The position numbers were made by a program, and so were the translations under genes. 64,000 nucleotides of DNA from Escherichia coli (GTDB taxonomy: Bacteria > Pseudomonadota > Gammaproteobacteria > Enterobacterales > Enterobacteriaceae), in NCBI RefSeq assembly GCF_050320075.1, contig NZ_CP190022.1; one strand, written 5' to 3'. This document shows, piece after piece, positions 13,465 to 64,000 of this stretch. The notes under the pieces are model-generated. The model was not told where the DNA came from, ran no database searches, and saw only the letters and a list, made by a program, of their open reading frames with translations. Position 1 is the stretch's first letter. Every line of letters starts with the position of its first letter.

Positions 13465-13993
13465 GGGGATTCCTCCATAGATGAATGGATAAATTTCGGG
13501 ATTAAGTCGGGTGGCATGAATGCGAATCAGCGCCGGTAATAACCGGACAGGAATGAGTTCAACAGGACATTTTCACAGAGAAGAGCGTGGGAGACAGGTA
13601 CAAAAAAACCGACTGGTGAGGCCGGTTTTTTTGCGATTCCGGGGTGGAGTTGGTGGCTCTGACCGGAGGAAGTCTCTTTTCAACTAACGTTACCAGAATA
13701 GCGTTATATTCACCTGATCGCAATCTGTCAGTTACAATCTATTATTCTGGGAGTAGCGATATCGCCTGAAACAAGTATAATCAGTAAGTTAGCCTTGTCT
13801 GGAGACTTACCTTCGCATCAATCCATCGGGACTATGGATCTGTGCTATTCAAAGACCTGGCCGGACAAACAGGTGGTGCTGTGTCTGGTGCTCTGGCCGG
13901 AGGAAGTCTCTTTTCAGCTAACAATGAGAGAGCTGTTGTGACAGGCAATGTAAGAGTAAGCAGCAGTGATTTCCTCCATTGACGGAGAAACGG

Positions 13994-14478: not shown

Positions 14479-14946
14479 TTATTTTTTATTCTGTTTCCTC
14501 CAGGCCCATGGTGGCACCGGATTTTCATCTGCCCATAATCCCCGTTTAAGGGCACGGGCATCGCGCTGGAGAGCCGGGAGAGTATAGTCCTTGTTGTAGT
14601 CCGGGTATACCCAGGCCGCTCCCTTCCTGATTTGCTCACGATTCGCTTCAGTGCCGTCAGCGGTATAGACTCTGCCGAGAATACGGTTATATCTGTCGGT
14701 CTGTAAGTATTGTACGGTTACAGGCTTACCGGCCACCAGGTCTTTTAACTGAGAGGCAGACCAGCGTCCAAAGGGCTGTTTCTTTTCCGGTGCATCAATA
14801 TTTGCCAGGCGGACCCTGACAGTTTTTTTATCCTGTAATATTTCCAGTGTATCACCATCAAGAACGCGGATAACGTTTCCCTGAATCTGTGCAGCGCAGA
14901 GGGAACCTGAAAAAATAATAGCGAGAGAGAATATATATTTTATCAT
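14479..14946 (-). CDS. nuc: Secreted thermonuclease (staphylococcal nuclease family)
   Basis: Signal peptide MIKYIFSLAIIFSGSLCAAQ; motifs VLDGDTLE, RLANIDAPE, RYNRILGRVY. Confidence 0.8.
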   Translation of the reverse strand: MIKYIFSLAIIFSGSLCAAQIQGNVIRVLDGDTLEILQDKKTVRVRLANIDAPEKKQPFGRWSASQLKDLVAGKPVTVQYLQTDRYNRILGRVYTADGTEANREQIRKGAAWVYPDYNKDYTLPALQRDARALKRGLWADENPVPPWAWRKQNKK

Positions 14947-15109: not shown

Positions 15110-15733
15110 ATGCAGGAACATATTGATTATCAGATTGAGAAATATCAGTTCAGGGCCAGGAATGAGTCTCCGCGACTGATGCGCCAGTGGGCAGATGTCA
15201 TGCGTGAATGCCGTGATACCGGAGCAGGAGCCAGGGAGCGGCTGCGGATTGCCTTACTTAATGTTGATTATGTGACCAGTTTTGAGCTGCCGTTTCGTCT
15301 GCTGTTAACCCGGACACCGCAGATGATTGACAGCATGCGGCGGGAATGGCAGCTCAGCCAGAAAAAAGTCGTCTTCAATGAGCGGCAGCGGGGATGTGTA
15401 TACAGTCTGCAGAATGACTTATCCGGCGTGCCGGATAGCTTCAGTTACAGTCTTGCGACGCGAATACGGCGGATGGACTGCTATGGCATGACGACGCGTT
15501 GTTTTACTGATATCGCCGGGCAGGTTAAAGCCCCGACGGCACGGCTGAAACTAGCGCTGGAAAGCGGGTTGCTGGTAACGGCACTGGATGGCCTGTTCTG
15601 GCTGGGAACTCAGCGAATTGCAGCTGATGTGCAGAGACTGCGTCAGTCAGGTATGGTTATAGTCACCCGGGAAGTTGAGGTATCAGACTCCCTGACCGGA
15701 ACCACCAGACTGGTTTCTGCCTACACACTTTAA
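15110..15733 (+). CDS. Hypothetical protein (207 aa)
   Basis: Divergent from nuc across an AT-rich promoter region; no family recognised. Confidence 0.5.
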   Translation: MQEHIDYQIEKYQFRARNESPRLMRQWADVMRECRDTGAGARERLRIALLNVDYVTSFELPFRLLLTRTPQMIDSMRREWQLSQKKVVFNERQRGCVYSLQNDLSGVPDSFSYSLATRIRRMDCYGMTTRCFTDIAGQVKAPTARLKLALESGLLVTALDGLFWLGTQRIAADVQRLRQSGMVIVTREVEVSDSLTGTTRLVSAYTL

Positions 15734-15820
15734 AGCACAGGAGGAATCTTTGTTACCGTATTCGCACTGATTCTGAAATTTACCATTGTTTACCGGGACA
15801 GATTACAGACAGGATATTTT

Positions 15821-16276
15821 ATGCGAGATAAATCAGAAGTATTAACCGGAGCGCAGAAAAACAGATTTGGTCTGATTCTTTATATTATACTATTATCAGT
15901 TGTTTATATATTGATAACAAGACTTAATCTCACAACCACATATTATTCGCTGTATTCATCTCTGGATGAGAATTCACAGGTGACGGAGTATTTTATAATA
16001 TCCATAGCTACCTTTCTTTTTCTGGCGGCTTTATGTTTGTTCTTCATTTATTCTTTCTTTAAACGGAAAAGAGTTGTCGGGAAATTACTTCTGTGTATTT
16101 ATATTCTTTATATATCACACTATGCTATCACTTTTGTTTATTGTCTTTATGTTGTCGGTGCTGAGTGTATGGCAACCGGAAAGATTGAGCATATTTTGAT
16201 TGATATTATTATAGCCATGCTTTCTCTTTCGTATGTTTGCCTTTCCGGGAGGGCAAGACATATTTTTGTTAACTAA
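15821..16276 (+). CDS. Hypothetical polytopic membrane protein (151 aa), low GC
   Basis: Several hydrophobic helices; AT-rich codon usage unlike the backbone. Confidence 0.45.
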   Translation: MRDKSEVLTGAQKNRFGLILYIILLSVVYILITRLNLTTTYYSLYSSLDENSQVTEYFIISIATFLFLAALCLFFIYSFFKRKRVVGKLLLCIYILYISHYAITFVYCLYVVGAECMATGKIEHILIDIIIAMLSLSYVCLSGRARHIFVN

Positions 16277-16454
16277 ATGTATTCTGAGTGTTTTATGGTT
16301 ATGAGGCCTTCATCGGGTTATGCGAATAATCTGGTTCGGGGAGCAGTTGCTGTAAGCACAGAACCTGATAATATGTAAATCCTGCTGGACAGGGTAGGGT
16401 ATTTTTGTGAACTGTTTCATATAAATATCCATGCGTTGAAATGATCGTCTGTGT

Positions 16455-18011
16455 TTGTACAGGAAAATGACTGGCGTGTCTTGTATTAAAGAAAAATCAA
16501 AATATACTTTTGAGAGAGCAAAACAGTTTTATTTTATGTTGTGGTGTAAAGAGTCACTGATTTATCTGTTGTTTTCTGTGCTTGTTACATGGTGTTGCGG
16601 ATATACAGTGAAAAACACCCTGGGGAATGTGCTTATATTGTTCCTGATGTTGTTGTTGGGGCGGCAGAATGTTATTTCAGCAACGTGTGTCTGTATCTTT
16701 CTTTTGTTAAGTGCATTCTATGCTCCGGTTGGGATGATTTACGGAAAAATAAACAACAGTTTTATTGCGTCTGTAATGCAGACAAATCTAAATGAGGCAG
16801 GTGAATTTATCACAGGCATACCTGTTCTTTATTTTATTGTTTCACTGATTATTGCTGCTTTTACATTCTGGTTCTGGCGTAAGCGTGATAAAAGCCACCA
16901 GGGATTTATCTTTCTGTTGTTCTTTATCGTATTGTCAGTAAATGCATGGCCAAAACGTATGGTTACGAATGTAATGACAGGGATAGCTGAAACCAGAGAA
17001 GAAATGATGCGATATGAATCGCTGAAACACAATCAGAAAGATTCATGGGATATTGTGAATGTGGAGAAGAAATATAAAACCATAATTATCGTAATTGGTG
17101 AAAGTGTCAGACGGGATTATCTTTCTGTTTATGGGTATCCTTTGCCGACAACACCATGGTTGAATTCTGCTCCGGGTATATTTATTAATGGGTATTTCTC
17201 CGCAGCTCCGAATACGATAGGTTCACTCAGCAGAACACTGACTCTTGATTACACTGAAACAGGTAATCCGGGTAATAATATTGTTACGCTTGCCAGAAAA
17301 GCCGGATATGAGACGTGGTGGATATCAAATCAGGGCTCTTTAGGGCGACATGATACGCTGATTTCTGTCATCGCCGCCAATGCGGATAAGAAATATTTTC
17401 TTAAGGAAGGGAGCTCTTCTTCCCGTCGCATTGATGATGAAGATATGCTTCAGTATGTCAGGGAAGCTGTTAATTCGTCTTCTCCAAAAGTGATTTTCAT
17501 TCATATGCTGGGGTCCCATCCTAATCCCTGTGACAGACTTTTTAATGATGCACAGCCGTTCAGGGAATTATTCGGAAATAAAGTATCCTGTTATTTATCA
17601 ACATTGCTTAAGCTGGATCGGTTTCTTCAGGCAATTTATAACATGACGACAGAGCATGGCGATGATTTTGCCATGCTGTATTTTTCTGATCATGGGCAAT
17701 CCGTCACTTCAGACAGCACCCCTGTGCATCATGCGCCAGGTTTGCGTTCGGGATACGATGTACCTCTCATGATGATGGCCAGTGATATTACTGAGCACCA
17801 CCTCAATCATGTGCATATCAGTGCACGTCGTTTTCCCGAGATTTTTCAATGGATCACAGGGATACAAACCAAAAATCTGCCGTTAAGTTTTTCTTTGTTA
17901 CAGAATGATTTCGCTGAAAGTGTTTCTGTATTCAATGGTGAACGTGACGTTCCGGTAATGTCTTTGCCAGAAGAGCCGATACTGACCGGAAATGCTGAAT
18001 CAGAAAAATAA
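16455..18011 (+). CDS. Phosphoethanolamine-transferase-family (sulfatase-fold) inner membrane protein
   Basis: N-terminal TM helices, then IIIVIGESVRRDYLSVYGY, FIHMLGSHPNP and FSDHGQS motifs resembling EptA/LptA-type enzymes; low GC; exact start uncertain. Confidence 0.6.
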   Translation: MYRKMTGVSCIKEKSKYTFERAKQFYFMLWCKESLIYLLFSVLVTWCCGYTVKNTLGNVLILFLMLLLGRQNVISATCVCIFLLLSAFYAPVGMIYGKINNSFIASVMQTNLNEAGEFITGIPVLYFIVSLIIAAFTFWFWRKRDKSHQGFIFLLFFIVLSVNAWPKRMVTNVMTGIAETREEMMRYESLKHNQKDSWDIVNVEKKYKTIIIVIGESVRRDYLSVYGYPLPTTPWLNSAPGIFINGYFSAAPNTIGSLSRTLTLDYTETGNPGNNIVTLARKAGYETWWISNQGSLGRHDTLISVIAANADKKYFLKEGSSSSRRIDDEDMLQYVREAVNSSSPKVIFIHMLGSHPNPCDRLFNDAQPFRELFGNKVSCYLSTLLKLDRFLQAIYNMTTEHGDDFAMLYFSDHGQSVTSDSTPVHHAPGLRSGYDVPLMMMASDITEHHLNHVHISARRFPEIFQWITGIQTKNLPLSFSLLQNDFAESVSVFNGERDVPVMSLPEEPILTGNAESEK

Positions 18012-18103
18012 TAAAGATTATTTATGACCGAGCTCAATGCCTCATGTGTATGAGGCATTGAGCGTTTATTTCAGGCTGACACTGTTTTCAGCCCATACCT
18101 GGA

Positions 18104-18466
18104 TCAGTGAATATGCTGACCTGTTTTTTCGCGAATATCAGCCCCCTGTAATTGTATCAATATACCCTCTCCGTTGAGCATCAGGCTGTCCAGTGAATGG
18201 ATCCCACTCCTCCTCATCAGTTCGTAGCAGAGTGTACTCAGCATGGCAAGTGCAGCTTCTGATGATTTACAGTGTGTATTCAGGAGGGTAAAAAATTGTT
18301 CAAAAACATCCGGGTTTATACTGGTGCTTTGATATTCGTTACTCATAGTATTTCCTTCCAGGTCATTATTACTTCCAGATTTAACATGATGTCTGTAACC
18401 ATAAAATAATGAACGTGTTCCGGGAATCCTTGCCGTGTAGTTTCCCGTAAAAATACTGTTGTGCAT
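18104..18466 (-). CDS. Hypothetical protein (80-120 aa depending on start)
   Basis: ORF in the low-GC block; internal Met (MSNEYQST) may be the true start. Confidence 0.3.
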   Translation of the reverse strand: MHNSIFTGNYTARIPGTRSLFYGYRHHVKSGSNNDLEGNTMSNEYQSTSINPDVFEQFFTLLNTHCKSSEAALAMLSTLCYELMRRSGIHSLDSLMLNGEGILIQLQGADIREKTGQHIH

Positions 18467-18559
18467 TACATGTCATTAGGTGGAAACCGATTGTGGCAGA
18501 CTGAAAATCGATTAGAATAGCGGCGGGCGCTTGAGGCTGTATGCTGAAAGCGTTTTGTG

Positions 18560-18626
18560 GACGGCATGCAGCAGAAAGCCCCAGGCGATTTTTTTATCAA
18601 TCAACCCAGGGCCCACTGTAATGCCT
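18560..18626 (-). ncRNA. Putative Sok-like antisense RNA of the pnd locus (approximate)
   Basis: Perfect TATAAT on the minus strand (plus-strand coordinates 18633-18638) with upstream TTGCCT; would be antisense to the pndC start region; extent inferred. Confidence 0.25.
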
Positions 18627-18824
18627 CAACAACATTATAGTAGCCCGATGACGGCCGAAAGGCAATGGAGGGGCTGCGATGCCACAACGAACGTTTTTAA
18701 TAATGTTAATCGTCGTCTGTGTGACGATACTGTGTTTTGTCTGGATGGTGAGGGATTCGCTTTGCGGATTTCGTATCGAGCAGGGAAATACAGTGCTTGT
18801 GGCAACGTTAGCCTACGAAGTTAA
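18621..18824 (+). CDS. pndC: PndC (Mok-like frame overlapping pndA)
   Basis: Reading frame overlapping pndA in a different frame, as in hok/mok loci; start chosen at an internal Met. Confidence 0.35.
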   Translation: MPQQHYSSPMTAERQWRGCDATTNVFNNVNRRLCDDTVFCLDGEGFALRISYRAGKYSACGNVSLRS

Positions 18825-18831
18825 ACGTTAA
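18679..18831 (+). CDS. pndA: PndA, Hok-family type I toxin (50 aa)
   Basis: Hand translation MPQRTFLIMLIVVCVTILCFVWMVRDSLCGFRIEQGNTVLVATLAYEVKR; Hok signature SLC...R...G...V.A.LAYE; hairpin ggcggcaggaaatctgccgcc follows. Confidence 0.85.
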   Translation: MPQRTFLIMLIVVCVTILCFVWMVRDSLCGFRIEQGNTVLVATLAYEVKR

Positions 18832-19087
18832 CGGGCAACATGGCGGCAGGAAATCTGCCGCCGGATTGTTGCGAAAGCAAACCTCAATGCGCCCTTTTTT
18901 ACCTGGATTTCTGCAGCGCGTTTCAGCATAGCATGCAGTTCTGTGCTGATCCTTGCTTCCAGTCGGGCAGTTTGTGTTGCTGATGGCATGATTTGTACTT
19001 CCTGAATACACTGAACGTCAAATTGCCGTATTGTGCTAATTACAGTCTGATACAGGGACGGCAGACAGGCATTCTGCCTGAAAAGAA

Positions 19088-19112
19088 AAAGCCGGTTCAG
19101 AGAAAACCGGCT
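19088..19112 (-). terminator. Rho-independent terminator after excA
   Basis: On the minus strand: gccggttttctctgaaccggc followed by tttttctttt. Confidence 0.45.
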
Positions 19113-19144
19113 GACGGATTATCGTCTAACAGTTGGTCGCTACC

Positions 19145-19795
19145 TTAAAATACTTCTGCAACAGGAACACCGGCAACTTTTTCCCACTCTTTAACCCGAT
19201 ACCGAATCATCTGCGGGAAACGTTCCTTGTACTCATATCCACGTGCAGCCATGGTGTGCATGGTGTTGGCCAGCGTCCTTGATGAGATGCCGGAGATTTC
19301 CAGTGGGATCATCGGCAGACTCACATATGTAGTGTGGATTTCCAGCTTGCCGTCTTCAGCAACCGTGCGGGTAAAGTTGTGAATATCCAGACCAATCACA
19401 TCCATCACATTGTTTGGGTAAATGCGCACATACAGCATGGTGCCGTTTTTAATGTCGATCCCGAAATAACAACTCTTCGAGAATGACAGTTGCTCGTAAT
19501 CGCTGGTCGGCGCAAAGAGACAGCTTTCTTTTATCTGCTTAACAACCTGCTGGATTTTCTTTTTCTTCGCTCTGGTTCTCAGATATAGCCAGAGTGGGGG
19601 AATAAAAAGAAGAAAATAACATCCATATGCCAGAATAAAAAGGCTTGTTGAATTCGTTAGTTTATCATCTAATAAATATGATGTATAAGCTGTTGCGTAT
19701 AAAGCTAAGCACGGAATGCCTAATAAAAAATAAGCGTTGCGGGCCAAGTGGTAATATGCCCACCAGGAAGGATATCTGCTTTTTGTTTTGTTCAT
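19145..19795 (-). CDS. excA: ExcA entry-exclusion inner membrane protein
   Basis: 216 aa with TM helices, immediately downstream of traY as in R64. Confidence 0.6.
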   Translation of the reverse strand: MNKTKSRYPSWWAYYHLARNAYFLLGIPCLALYATAYTSYLLDDKLTNSTSLFILAYGCYFLLFIPPLWLYLRTRAKKKKIQQVVKQIKESCLFAPTSDYEQLSFSKSCYFGIDIKNGTMLYVRIYPNNVMDVIGLDIHNFTRTVAEDGKLEIHTTYVSLPMIPLEISGISSRTLANTMHTMAARGYEYKERFPQMIRYRVKEWEKVAGVPVAEVF

Positions 19796-19883
19796 AATAA
19801 ACCTCCATATTCACCTGAATATATTTTAAACTCTTCAGGTGAATATGGCAATGCTGTTTTATTGGTTTTTCTATGTTTTCATT

Positions 19884-22049
19884 TTATTGTTTTATTCCGT
19901 CTTTATCATCTCTATTAATATTTTTCAGTTTTTCTTCACGAACGCCAGGTGTTCTGCGCATATTGGTATTACCTCCGGCAATAATATCTTTGACTGAAGA
20001 AACCATATTCCCCAGCATATTAACACCGTCACGCCCGCCCAGAAAATTAATTACATGGTCAGGCAGATAAGCCTGAAGTGCAAAAATGGCCGCAACCAGC
20101 GTGGTACAGGCTCGGGCATAAATCATCAAAAATCCCGCCATGCTGAACACGCCCGTCACAGAATTTATCTGGACATTCATCAGCGCAGCAGCAAACAGCG
20201 CATTCAGGATTGTGCCGCCGGCCACGATGGCGACCGATGCAAAAAAGAATCCGAACACCATCAGCAGCGGTCTGATCATGCTGTCTATCAGGTAGATGTA
20301 ACCGTAAGCGGCCCGGCTTCCCCGGTCCTGACTTGTTCCCAGATGGGTGGCGGCCCACAGGGGGCCAGCAGCACATCCAATCAGTACGCTGAGTATCCAG
20401 TTGCCGATGCCGGTCATCCAGAAGATAAACGGAATAAACGGCAGGTAAATGGATAACGAAAAACCGGCACAGAACAGCAAAAACAGCAGGAAGTAGAGCG
20501 GTGGTGCGGATGCTTCCAGAAAAGCCTTTGCGGCGTCAGATAAGCCGCTGACGGCATTGACCAGTCGGCCAAAAACGGAGTTGCTGCCGGCAGTTGAAAG
20601 CACCCTGACGGTGGTATAACCCGCCCAGATGGTTTCGGTTGTGACCATGGTGTAATCACCAATGTTTTTCATTTTTATTAGCGGATTTAGTTGGTCCGAG
20701 GTGGTTCCAGTTCCTGAATGTATGGTTGCAATTTGATTGGTAAATAACGTCAGGTCATTCCCTAGGAGTTTTAACAGGGCTGATTGAGGATTCTGTGTAT
20801 TAGATGCCTGGTATTCACTGGCTGAGGTGGCTGTTCCCAGTGCAGGTGTATATGGTGAGTTTTGCAACTGTGCCTGGTAAGCCCCCTTGACTTCCTTCAG
20901 GAACTCCGTATCCCCGGCTTCGCCCAGTGACGAGACGCCACTCACAGTAGGAGCGCGGTTGGCCAGGTCTTCCAGTCGCTGGTTGGCGGTGGCAAAGGTC
21001 TGGTACCAGGCGCCCAGGGCAACCCAGCCGTAGGTGGTCAGGTAGGATTTCAGCTGCTCCCTGCGCTCAGTTTCTGCGTTATCTGCCGGCAACGCCTTCT
21101 GCACCGTTTCTTCATACCGGTTGGCAGCCTTCTGAATACGGCTTTCAATATCCGGCAGGTTGCCGTTACCCGTGTCGCGTCGGGTCCGGTACGCTGACAC
21201 AAATTCCTGCGCCGCGCTGTCCAGGTCACGGAGCATGGTATCCATGGCGGAGCGCTGTGCCGTCAGAACCCCCTGATATTCCGTTTCAATGAAGGGATTG
21301 AAAAAATGGGCCAGCGCGGACTGCTTGTTACTGCCGTTTCCTTTCACGGAGAGACTCACACTCCCGCAGGTGGCGCTGCCATTTGAGACGGTGACGGTAT
21401 ATCTGCCATTCTCTGTCCGTGAGGATTCGCTCATGGGCGGCGTTGATGAACGTGCGGTACGGTTAAAGTCATCGAGGCCCGTATTCATGGCGTGTTTGCA
21501 CAGTTCCATCTCCAGTATTCCCCGTGCTGCCGTGCGGGTGGAGACATGTACTGGCTGTACGGTCATTGAATAGCCTTCAGCGATGTTTTCTGCCGCTGTC
21601 TGAACCATGATATTGGCGGAACCGATGCCCATGATGGATGCGCCCCACAGCATGACCAGTTGTGCCAGACTCCAGCCGGAAGCGGTGGGCACAATCATCA
21701 TAAAACCGCTCACAATACTGAGCATTCCGACGACGTCCCGTCCGTTGTTAAAGACATTGCCCTGGTGTCCCGTGCGGACAGCATGACGGATACCAATAAA
21801 CAGAAACCAGACTATCCCCATCGTGGCGATAATTGCGTTAAACACCATGAACAGGTTGCCAATGATGGTGTTGCTGCTGGCTGTCAGGGGATTTGTGACC
21901 ACATCACCAAAAATGGTGACCAGTGCCTGGCGCGACAGGTCATCCGGATTGGTGGCGGCACTCACAATGTCCTGATAGGTGACGAAAGCCTGTGCAGGTA
22001 CGGCAGCCAGCGCCAGACCTGCACTCAGTGCTCTGGGTATGATTTTCAC
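19884..22049 (-). CDS. traY: TraY, DotA-like polytopic membrane protein
   Basis: 721 aa; signal peptide and many TM helices; last gene of the tra operon. Confidence 0.7.
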   Translation of the reverse strand: MKIIPRALSAGLALAAVPAQAFVTYQDIVSAATNPDDLSRQALVTIFGDVVTNPLTASSNTIIGNLFMVFNAIIATMGIVWFLFIGIRHAVRTGHQGNVFNNGRDVVGMLSIVSGFMMIVPTASGWSLAQLVMLWGASIMGIGSANIMVQTAAENIAEGYSMTVQPVHVSTRTAARGILEMELCKHAMNTGLDDFNRTARSSTPPMSESSRTENGRYTVTVSNGSATCGSVSLSVKGNGSNKQSALAHFFNPFIETEYQGVLTAQRSAMDTMLRDLDSAAQEFVSAYRTRRDTGNGNLPDIESRIQKAANRYEETVQKALPADNAETERREQLKSYLTTYGWVALGAWYQTFATANQRLEDLANRAPTVSGVSSLGEAGDTEFLKEVKGAYQAQLQNSPYTPALGTATSASEYQASNTQNPQSALLKLLGNDLTLFTNQIATIHSGTGTTSDQLNPLIKMKNIGDYTMVTTETIWAGYTTVRVLSTAGSNSVFGRLVNAVSGLSDAAKAFLEASAPPLYFLLFLLFCAGFSLSIYLPFIPFIFWMTGIGNWILSVLIGCAAGPLWAATHLGTSQDRGSRAAYGYIYLIDSMIRPLLMVFGFFFASVAIVAGGTILNALFAAALMNVQINSVTGVFSMAGFLMIYARACTTLVAAIFALQAYLPDHVINFLGGRDGVNMLGNMVSSVKDIIAGGNTNMRRTPGVREEKLKNINRDDKDGIKQ

Positions 22050-63299: not shown

Positions 63300-63846
63300 G
63301 ATTTACGCACTCTTGTAAGCCTTGTGGACGGTTTCGAGGCGGGCGAAAACCGACAACTCCTGCAAACAGGATTAATGGCTGGAAAATATATTACATAAGG
63401 ATGTATCTGTGGCAAGAGTTAATATAAGTAGTTGAATAGATCGTTATATTTGATAAATCAGCATATCATGCTGATTTGTGTGCAGTGTCTGGAGGATTAG
63501 ATCGTTTAAAAATTTTAGGCGATCTCTTCTACTAAAAATGATGAAAAATACAGCATAAAAGATCGTTTGTGAAATTGTTCATTTTTTGACACAGTTCAAA
63601 AAAACGACGCTTTTTCGGGGAGTTAAAGAGGGCCACTGTAACCCTGAGAAATCATGTCGGCTTTTCAAAGCGGTGGAAAAGGGGTATATTGCGGATCGTT
63701 ATGCAGTGGCTTTTGGGATCGTCAGGATCCGGGAAGTCAGAAAACGGCAGGATGCGCCATAAGGCATTCAGGACGTATGGCAGAAACGACGGCAGTTTGC
63801 CGGTGCCGGAAGGCTGAAAAAAGTTTCAGAAGGCCATAAAGGAAAA

Positions 63847-63897
63847 CCCCCACTATCTTTCGTCGAACTTTGGCGGGATCGTGAAAGATAGTGGGGG
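63847..63897. promoter_or_regulatory. Stem-loop with TTGGCG loop motif: candidate structure I / Inc RNA control element of an I-complex replicon
   Basis: Perfect 15-bp stem cccccactatctttc / gaaagatagtggggg around a 21-nt loop containing ttggcg. Confidence 0.5.
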
Positions 63898-64000
63898 CCT
63901 CACAGAATACGGGATAAGTATATATGAAACCGTGTCAGAGATTCAACCCTTTGCAGTGCATTAACGCACGGCAATTTGTTCCCGCCATAAGCGACAGCTT

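Follow-up and report, generated by a model that had tools for sequence, protein, structure and literature searches.

The enzyme family of phosphoethanolamine (pEtN) transferases serves a wide range of acceptors, of which a 2023 review distinguished eleven classes (PMC10525099). One member, OpgE, transfers pEtN onto osmoregulated periplasmic glucans (OPGs), and an opgE mutant has no known phenotype (PMC3818809). The OpgE-like proteins PtdA and PtdB of H. ducreyi do not modify lipid A but have an influence on surface charge and on resistance to defensins (PMC4406763). YjgX-like proteins have been referred to only as 'putative' genes on islands (PMC6174562). Here we describe a phosphoethanolamine transferase gene of this last type (PET), which lies with a gene for a small DUF2569-family membrane protein in an AT-rich segment (the island) of a 64,000-nucleotide stretch of Escherichia coli DNA from contig NZ_CP190022.1 (the window). 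Our literature searches found no study of this plasmid PET gene. We favor the view, to which we assign a probability of roughly 0.6, that the island represents an accessory module of two envelope genes on IncB/O/K/Z plasmids, namely the DUF2569 gene and a YjgX-type PET that is predicted to be catalytically competent and whose acceptor would most likely be a sugar.

An earlier note on this DNA had described the larger island protein as a 518-aa, EptA/LptA-like enzyme. The open reading frame (ORF), the motifs GESVRRD, HMLGSHPNP and DHGQS, and the family assignment all withstood our analysis, but the protein is probably shorter. Translation is likely to begin at the GTG codon that RefSeq also uses as the start, which has the sequence AGGAAA 9 nt upstream, and the product would be 511 aa long (Table 1). 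Pfam analysis of PET identified a Sulfatase domain (PF00884, E 1.6e-38) together with a weak match to EptA_B_N (PF08019, E 2.2e-6). Four to five hydrophobic segments within aa 27-129 lie ahead of the periplasmic sulfatase-fold domain. An AlphaFold2 model of PET based on a 53-sequence alignment (pLDDT 89, pTM 0.85) matched the periplasmic domain of EcEptC (6a82) with an E-value of 1.5e-20 and a TMt of 0.74, and comparisons with the catalytic domains of EcEptC, NmEptA and MCR-1 gave E-values from 1e-20 to 1e-12. When the model was compared with full-length NmEptA (5fgn) and MCR-1 (9nww), TMq values of 0.61 and 0.62 were obtained over 537-549 aligned columns.

A HMMER alignment was used to place the active site. 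Residues E240, T280, H383, D452, H453 and H465 of NmEptA aligned with Glu, Thr, His, Asp, His and His in PET, and the active-site residues in the 511-aa numbering are E209, T247, H348, D405 and H406. In the 53-sequence alignment, which includes EptA, EptB, EptC, OpgE and YhbX of E. coli K-12, positions G208, E209, T247, H343, H348, D405 and H406 were invariant. All of the catalytic and metal-binding residues are kept in PET. The earlier note had placed a Ser at the nucleophile position. That assignment was wrong, as it is Thr247 (Thr254 in the 518-aa ORF, within APNTIGSL) that aligns with Thr280 of NmEptA and that is invariant in all 53 sequences. Only two periplasmic Cys residues are present in PET (352 and 372), similar to the pair in OpgE (371 and 389), and E. 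coli EptA has ten. PET thus contains the sulfatase fold, the N-terminal membrane domain, and the Thr nucleophile with its ligands that characterize the bacterial phosphoethanolamine transferases (COG2194). We conclude from the sequence and the structural model that PET is an intact two-domain protein of the pEtN transferase family with a complete predicted active site.

The position of PET within this family was examined by pairwise comparison, phylogeny and profile scores. BLASTP against the K-12 paralogues gave 226 bits for OpgE (30.6% identity over 490 aa, E 7e-71) and 105, 90, 57 and 51 bits for EptC, YhbX, EptA and EptB, respectively. Identity to YjgX-like proteins was 48-52%, as compared with at most 31% to any of the named paralogues. 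The full-length YjgX-like protein of one E. coli chromosome (L002:8001-9500) is 52% identical to PET. It corresponds to yjgX, which in K-12 exists as a pseudogene in the leuX island; between PET and this pseudogene, identity was 52% across aa 189-503. In a neighbor-joining tree with 200 bootstraps, the plasmid PET proteins formed one clade (100%), and the plasmid proteins together with YjgX-like proteins of E. coli, Salmonella and Erwinia formed a second, enclosing clade (100%). Both are part of an OpgE-like superclade that leaves out EptA, EptB, EptC and YhbX (94.5% bootstrap), and the true OpgE orthologues, with 53-86% identity to OpgE, group apart in a clade of their own (100%).

PET did not pass any NCBIfam model at its cut-off. 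The CptA models NF007933 and NF012179 gave 107.6 bits against a cut-off of 404 and 100.5 against 900, which argues against CptA/EptC membership. Scores with the EptA models were 74.7 against 561 and 48.8 against 660, and those with the models for MCR-1 to MCR-8 were 16.7-28.5 bits against cut-offs of 1100-1250 (MCR-1, 16.7 against 1100; MCR-4, 28.5 against 1225). The model scores, the clade position and the lack of multiple periplasmic disulfides all speak against membership in the EptA/MCR group. The low identity to OpgE and the separate clade of its orthologues likewise indicate that PET is not an OpgE orthologue. Since PET is monophyletic with the YjgX-like proteins and more similar to these than to the named paralogues, it belongs with them. 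We conclude from these sequence comparisons that PET falls within the YjgX subfamily of the OpgE-like branch and outside of the EptA/MCR clade. The BLASTP and profile comparison with EptA, EptB, EptC, OpgE, YhbX and MCR that the earlier note had proposed therefore upheld its choice of family and moved the protein to a different branch.

Other scans with PET were less informative. Two unnamed PHROGs families matched PET. A phage origin was considered and dropped, as tblastn searches of phages returned distant CptA/EptA-like matches only. A PADLOC scan gave no defence-system match.

The gene upstream of PET encodes a small inner-membrane protein. The polytopic membrane protein of the earlier note was supported by hydropathy, which predicted about four transmembrane helices, and the protein could be assigned to the DUF2569 family (Table 1). 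Its homologues were detected on E. coli plasmids only, where many alleles exist at 84-97% identity. A search of the PDB with the DUF2569 profile found nothing meaningful, the top match being an unrelated SIR2-like protein (E 0.044), and the AlphaFold2 model (pLDDT 64) was too poor for a fold search. The DUF2569 gene was present in 146 of 5426 complete E. coli genomes, with 179 of its 180 places being plasmid-borne. PET was present in 143 of the same genomes, 113 of which contained at least 80% of the gene, and 146 of its 147 places were on plasmids. The matching distributions indicate that the two genes travel together. Because they are also retained together through deep divergence, a functional tie is suggested, and the DUF2569 protein may be a membrane partner of PET.

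Substitution patterns were determined for both genes. All five PET alleles had an intact frame, with ratios of nonsynonymous to synonymous substitution (dN/dS) of 0.09-0.36. For DUF2569, dN/dS was 0.24-0.41 in nine of ten allele pairs; the ratio of 2.19 in the tenth pair (L021/L024) is based on only about four substitutions and carries no weight. The most divergent module was found on plasmid pJKHS006_1, in which PET is 74% and DUF2569 54% identical in amino acid sequence to the proteins of the window. The dS values between the two modules were approximately 1.0 and 1.7 for the two genes, which is at or near saturation, and dN/dS was about 0.17-0.19. In the same comparison, dS of the flanking helix-turn-helix (HTH) gene, nuc and excA was 0.25-0.59. 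Saturated dS, low dN/dS and a shared locus indicate that these are two old versions of the module in which both genes have been kept. These data establish that the module is under purifying selection.

We also determined how widely the module is distributed. The window region is 99.9-100% identical to the E. coli plasmid p1106 (NZ_MG825371; IncK2/Z, MOBP, MPF_I), in which the genes are annotated as 'DUF2569 family protein', 'phosphoethanolamine transferase' (511 aa) and an 80-aa 'hypothetical protein'. The island (positions 15760-18100) was found on 117 of 72,556 PLSDB plasmids, on 108 of them at full length; 114 of the 117 are from Escherichia and 111 were typed as conjugative. As the adjoining nuc-HTH backbone segment occurs on 500 PLSDB plasmids, about 23% of the plasmids with this flank contain the island and about 77% do not. 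Hosts that carry PET are often Shiga toxin-producing E. coli (STEC), including O111:H8, O113:H21, O104:H21 and O91.

Four layouts were distinguished for the interval that begins after the HTH gene and ends at the 80-aa ORF. Layout A, that of the window, has DUF2569 and PET. Layout B (pJKHS006_1) consists of DUF2569, IS1, the 74%-identical PET, and ORFs of 71 and 122 aa. Layout C (pE16EC0406-2, pZPK-H58 and pCT) has only the ORFs of 71 and about 122 aa, so that pCT, the functionally studied IncK plasmid, is without the module and its data are uninformative for PET. In layout D (pHB42-5), DUF2569 stands alone as the result of a clean deletion from window position 16414 to about 18335. The IncI1 plasmid R64 is without nuc, the HTH gene, DUF2569 and PET at this position. 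The earlier note had allowed that PET could turn out to be an ordinary conserved backbone gene of this plasmid lineage. It is indeed a recurrent, annotated gene of the lineage, but its presence on only about 23% of plasmids with the same flank makes it accessory rather than core. Thus the module is a recurrent and dispensable accessory element of I-complex plasmids and not part of their core backbone.

Two unusual carriers were seen in these searches. A lineage of plasmids of about 147-161 kb from bovine and human isolates (for example NZ_CP074751.1 and NZ_CP074933.1) has a DUF2569 gene that is 91.4% identical to that of the window and the first 129 bp of PET only. The sole chromosomal PET of the plasmid type among the 5426 genomes is in E. 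coli MINF_7C (NZ_LR890270.1, 3503396-3504931; 97.5% identity), and this copy may be an integrated plasmid segment.

By analogy with characterized enzymes, PET most likely adds pEtN to a periplasmic or surface glycan. In the mechanism that we propose, which draws on the structures of EptA and MCR-1 and on the genetics of OpgE, PET would take pEtN from phosphatidylethanolamine onto Thr247 and would then pass it to an acceptor exposed to the periplasm. Candidate acceptors are a periplasmic glucan, the core or O-antigen of lipopolysaccharide (LPS), or another envelope polysaccharide, rather than the phosphates of lipid A. The predicted consequence would be altered surface or periplasmic charge, rather than polymyxin resistance of the MCR type. 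A sugar is the most likely acceptor because the characterized OpgE-like relatives act on glucans or on other targets that are not lipid A. In its broad sense, the description of PET as an envelope-modifying enzyme in the earlier note is still the best reading.

Several observations weigh against this proposal. The YjgX subfamily has no characterized acceptor, and at 31% identity the substrate of OpgE cannot be transferred to PET by homology. The neighborhoods of five chromosomal relatives, which showed genomic-island contexts, contained no LPS, O-antigen or OPG cluster and no DUF2569 gene. A promoter scan found nine promoter-like matches where 9.3 were expected, which is chance level, and AT-rich cargo such as this may be silenced. 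Moreover, 30 of the 143 genomes with PET hold less than 80% of the gene, IS1 insertions occur, and the plasmid lineage of about 150 kb retains only the 129-bp remnant. Finally, a glucan-modifying PET would duplicate the function of OpgE, which E. coli possesses in any case.

The losses just described, to which the clean deletion in pHB42-5 can be added, together with the lowest GC content of the window and the lack of convincing promoters, are also what would be expected if the module were hitch-hiking AT-rich horizontal DNA that is largely silent or decaying and has no current function for the plasmid. Other observations argue otherwise. All five PET alleles are intact and have low dN/dS, and the two versions of the module that are saturated for synonymous substitutions have both kept the gene pair, at dN/dS below 0.2. 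In addition, none of the catalytic residues has been lost, and a perfect-hairpin terminator has been retained. We therefore regard absence of function as unlikely.

A more specific idea is that DUF2569 and PET edit the cell surface, such that pEtN on the LPS core or on another sugar would mask the receptor of PilV thin-pilus adhesins or of phages. PilV adhesins recognize LPS structures (PMC10654706), which fits this idea, as do the location between trbA and excA, the existence of two diverged versions at one locus, and the fast evolution of DUF2569. If true, surface editing would amount to exclusion or defence at the level of adhesion, sited near excA. We consider this role improbable.

The interpretation put forward in the earlier note was that PET is a plasmid-borne lipid A pEtN transferase, similar to EptA or MCR, that would lower polymyxin susceptibility. 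The overall fold and the catalytic residues are the same as those of EptA and MCR-1, and some GenBank records bear the name 'lipid A phosphoethanolamine transferase', although this name is automated. However, EptA was the second-weakest match among the K-12 paralogues, the EptA and MCR models scored far below their cut-offs, and PET falls outside of the group formed by EptA, EptB, EptC and YhbX. PET could form one disulfide, as compared with five in EptA; in the summary given in PMC10285318, Zhao et al. (2019) linked the inability of EcEptC to confer colistin resistance to a lack of disulfides. In addition, the OpgE-like PtdA and PtdB leave lipid A untouched (PMC4406763), and our literature searches found no paper tying the plasmid PET gene to colistin resistance. 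The proposed role in lipid A modification and polymyxin susceptibility is thus unsupported, given the OpgE/YjgX branch and the wide failure of the EptA, EptB, CptA and MCR cut-offs, and we judge it very unlikely. The interpretation of the earlier note was partly supported overall, and what it had named as grounds for abandoning it, a subfamily without lipid A activity or an ordinary gene of the plasmid lineage, is largely what we found.

It is equally doubtful that PET decorates a protein such as the type IVb thin-pilus subunits PilS and PilV, for although the host plasmids are of the I-complex with MPF_I and thin-pilus systems, the module lies in the trbA-excA region, and pilin and flagellar pEtN transferases are known (Neisseria PptA acting on PilE and Campylobacter EptC on FlgG; PMC10525099), the module is missing from about 77% of plasmids with the same flank and from all IncI1 plasmids such as R64, and the nearest, YjgX-like relatives are chromosomal-island genes without pil genes nearby.

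Table 1. Features of the PET locus and its flanks (positions are those of the 64,000-nucleotide window)
Feature	Position	Strand	Details
nuc (thermonuclease)	14479-14946	-	Left flank
ECs1377-family helix-turn-helix gene	15110-15733	+	NCBIfam NF052300, 300.9 bits against a cut-off of 190
AT-rich variable segment (island)	15734-18100		From the HTH gene stop codon to the 80-aa backbone ORF
DUF2569-family small inner-membrane protein	15821-16276	+	151 aa; Pfam DUF2569, E 2.5e-8; upstream of PET
Weak hairpin and T-run (possible partial terminator)	16379-16400	+	8-pair stem between the DUF2569 and PET genes; consensus match only
PET gene, YjgX/OpgE branch	16476-18011	+	511 aa from GTG 16476; alternative in-frame starts ATG 16467 and TTG 16455
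Hairpin (probable intrinsic terminator)	18032-18063		Perfect 14-bp inverted repeat, 4-nt loop, T-run; 21 nt past the PET stop
Hypothetical ORF	18104-18346	-	80 aa, as annotated in p1106; the 120-aa version is a mechanical extension to 18466
pnd (hok/sok-type) killer locus	18525-18831	+	Rfam sok 18525-18681, 123.7 bits; Hok/Gef ORF 18679-18831

The composition and boundaries of the island were also examined. The GC content of the segment is 0.388, as compared with 0.524 for the window, and is the minimum among 617 sliding windows of equal length; that of the DUF2569 gene is 0.331 and that of PET 0.401. The earlier note's AT-rich block unlike the backbone was therefore borne out, as were its three ORFs (15821-16276, plus strand, 151 aa; 16455-18011, plus strand, 518 aa from the TTG; 18104-18466, minus strand, 120 aa). 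It had placed the block between nuc and pndCA; both do flank it, but the HTH gene intervenes on the nuc side. Taken together, its observation was partly confirmed. Resemblance to I-complex plasmids without PET breaks off directly 3′ of the HTH stop codon, and near-identity to the relatives restarts at about position 18530, at sok. Around the segment there were no flanking direct or inverted repeats other than short ones at chance level, and it contains no integrase or transposase gene, which argues against a discrete mobile element or genomic island. Instead, the variants suggest a plasmid hot spot at which alleles were exchanged or sequence was deleted. Seven terminator-like sites were found, as compared with 2.0 ± 1.4 in shuffled sequences. 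The perfect hairpin downstream of PET is probably the intrinsic terminator that closes the module, and the weak hairpin between the two genes is a possible partial terminator judging from its sequence.

The genes on either side belong to the backbone. The HTH gene adjoins the module upstream in the same orientation and occurs in relatives without PET. The small minus-strand ORF that the earlier note had counted as part of the island does exist, but it is found beside pnd in plasmids without PET, whose alleles are about 70% identical to that of the window, and it is thus a backbone gene and not cargo. Profile scans of NCBIfam, PADLOC and PHROGs found no family match for its 80-aa product. To the right of pnd the order is excA followed by traY, and the module sits within the trbA-excA transfer and exclusion region.

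Variation and unusual composition were also observed outside of the island. The pnd-excA interval (window positions 18832-19144) is a second variable hot spot across the plasmids compared. Depending on the plasmid it contains nothing, a protein with a TnsA-N domain (the pCT 'putative sigma factor'), a GNAT/DUF1778 toxin-antitoxin pair or a VapBC pair. GC is also low (0.33-0.39) at 19400-20000, a second patch that takes in the 5′ portion of excA along with the spacer between excA and traY. Rfam matches were obtained for the AgrB antisense RNA at 13600-13687 on the minus strand (52.8 bits) and for the PK-repZ pseudoknot at 63839-63988 on the plus strand (167 bits); the latter, at the far right of the window, marks the repZ replication control region of the I-complex. 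The small ORF next to the AgrB match is annotated in relatives as the DinQ-like type I toxin DqlB, of which pJKHS006_1 has two copies.

PET is an already annotated accessory gene that is typical of its plasmid lineage and encodes an enzyme of a known family; the colistin angle fails. Among its carriers are IncK2/Z resistance plasmids with a worldwide distribution and large virulence plasmids of STEC. Knowing that PET is not of the MCR/EptA type averts false alarms about colistin resistance raised by automatic 'lipid A phosphoethanolamine transferase' labels. As a compact, intact and transferable plasmid gene, PET is also a convenient handle for finding the acceptor of the YjgX subfamily. The DUF2569 partner and the position near excA leave room for a role in surface editing.

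Among the known systems, Lpt-O (Opt) of the S. flexneri plasmid pSFxv_2 offers a functional analogy only: it is a plasmid enzyme that adds pEtN to O-antigen rhamnose and thereby changes the serotype (PMC3458804). We considered Lpt-O as the closest plasmid precedent and rejected it, since BLASTP gave an E-value of 0.85 and RefSeq assigns the protein to the LTA synthase family, another branch of the sulfatase superfamily. Lpt-O (L026:1523-3043) has no detectable similarity to enzymes of the EptA/OpgE type, though reviews class it with them.

EptA/PmrC and MCR-1 to MCR-10 share with PET the two-domain fold and the catalytic Thr/Zn site, and MCR genes are likewise plasmid-borne. In contrast to PET, they form the most distant branch together with EptB and have five disulfides where PET has one possible; PET also has no pap2 or dgkA neighbor. 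EptC/CptA, which transfers pEtN to heptose I of the LPS core, provided the best NCBIfam model and the best match to a solved structure by both sequence and fold, but its identity to PET is 23-28%, mostly in the catalytic domain, and it falls outside of the OpgE-like superclade. In our searches, a CptA-annotated transferase that is about 28% identical to PET in the catalytic domain only (for example NZ_CP027356.1, 18373-19164) was seen in over 500 plasmid records, the majority of them pO157-like plasmids of 70-100 kb. Transferases not of the MCR type are thus common on E. coli virulence plasmids.

OpgE (YbiP) is the best-scoring characterized paralogue of PET. The two proteins are similar in length (527 and 511 aa), have the same pair of periplasmic Cys residues, belong to the same superclade, and share an arrangement of N-terminal transmembrane helices followed by a periplasmic domain (PMC3818809). 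OpgE is nonetheless not an orthologue, and at about 30% identity its glucan specificity cannot be assumed for PET. An OpgE-like transferase of 642 aa that is 31% identical to PET was seen on a 6.2-kb plasmid of Enterobacter roggenkampii (L012:2837-4765). MOB-suite types this plasmid as non-mobilizable, yet it has Mbe-type mobilization genes, and an identical plasmid occurs in E. kobei.

Chromosomal YjgX-like genes on E. coli and Salmonella islands were found directly downstream of a gene for a Tia/Hek-type beta-barrel outer membrane protein (OMP) (L002:7113-9500; L017:5054-7503), and this OMP-transferase locus was matched in some form in 2972 of the 5426 complete E. coli genomes. At the K-12 locus (L010:2451-4598), opgE adjoins ompX in convergent orientation. 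OmpX belongs to the related OmpX/Ail family. The pairing of an OMP with a transferase may be an old arrangement. The YjgX-like transferases of these islands are the closest counterparts of the plasmid PET: they are 48-52% identical to it over nearly their full length, have the same size and architecture, and are likewise horizontally acquired cargo. They differ from PET in being chromosomal, in having a normal GC content (0.48 as compared with 0.40), and in usually following a Tia/Hek-type OMP gene rather than DUF2569.

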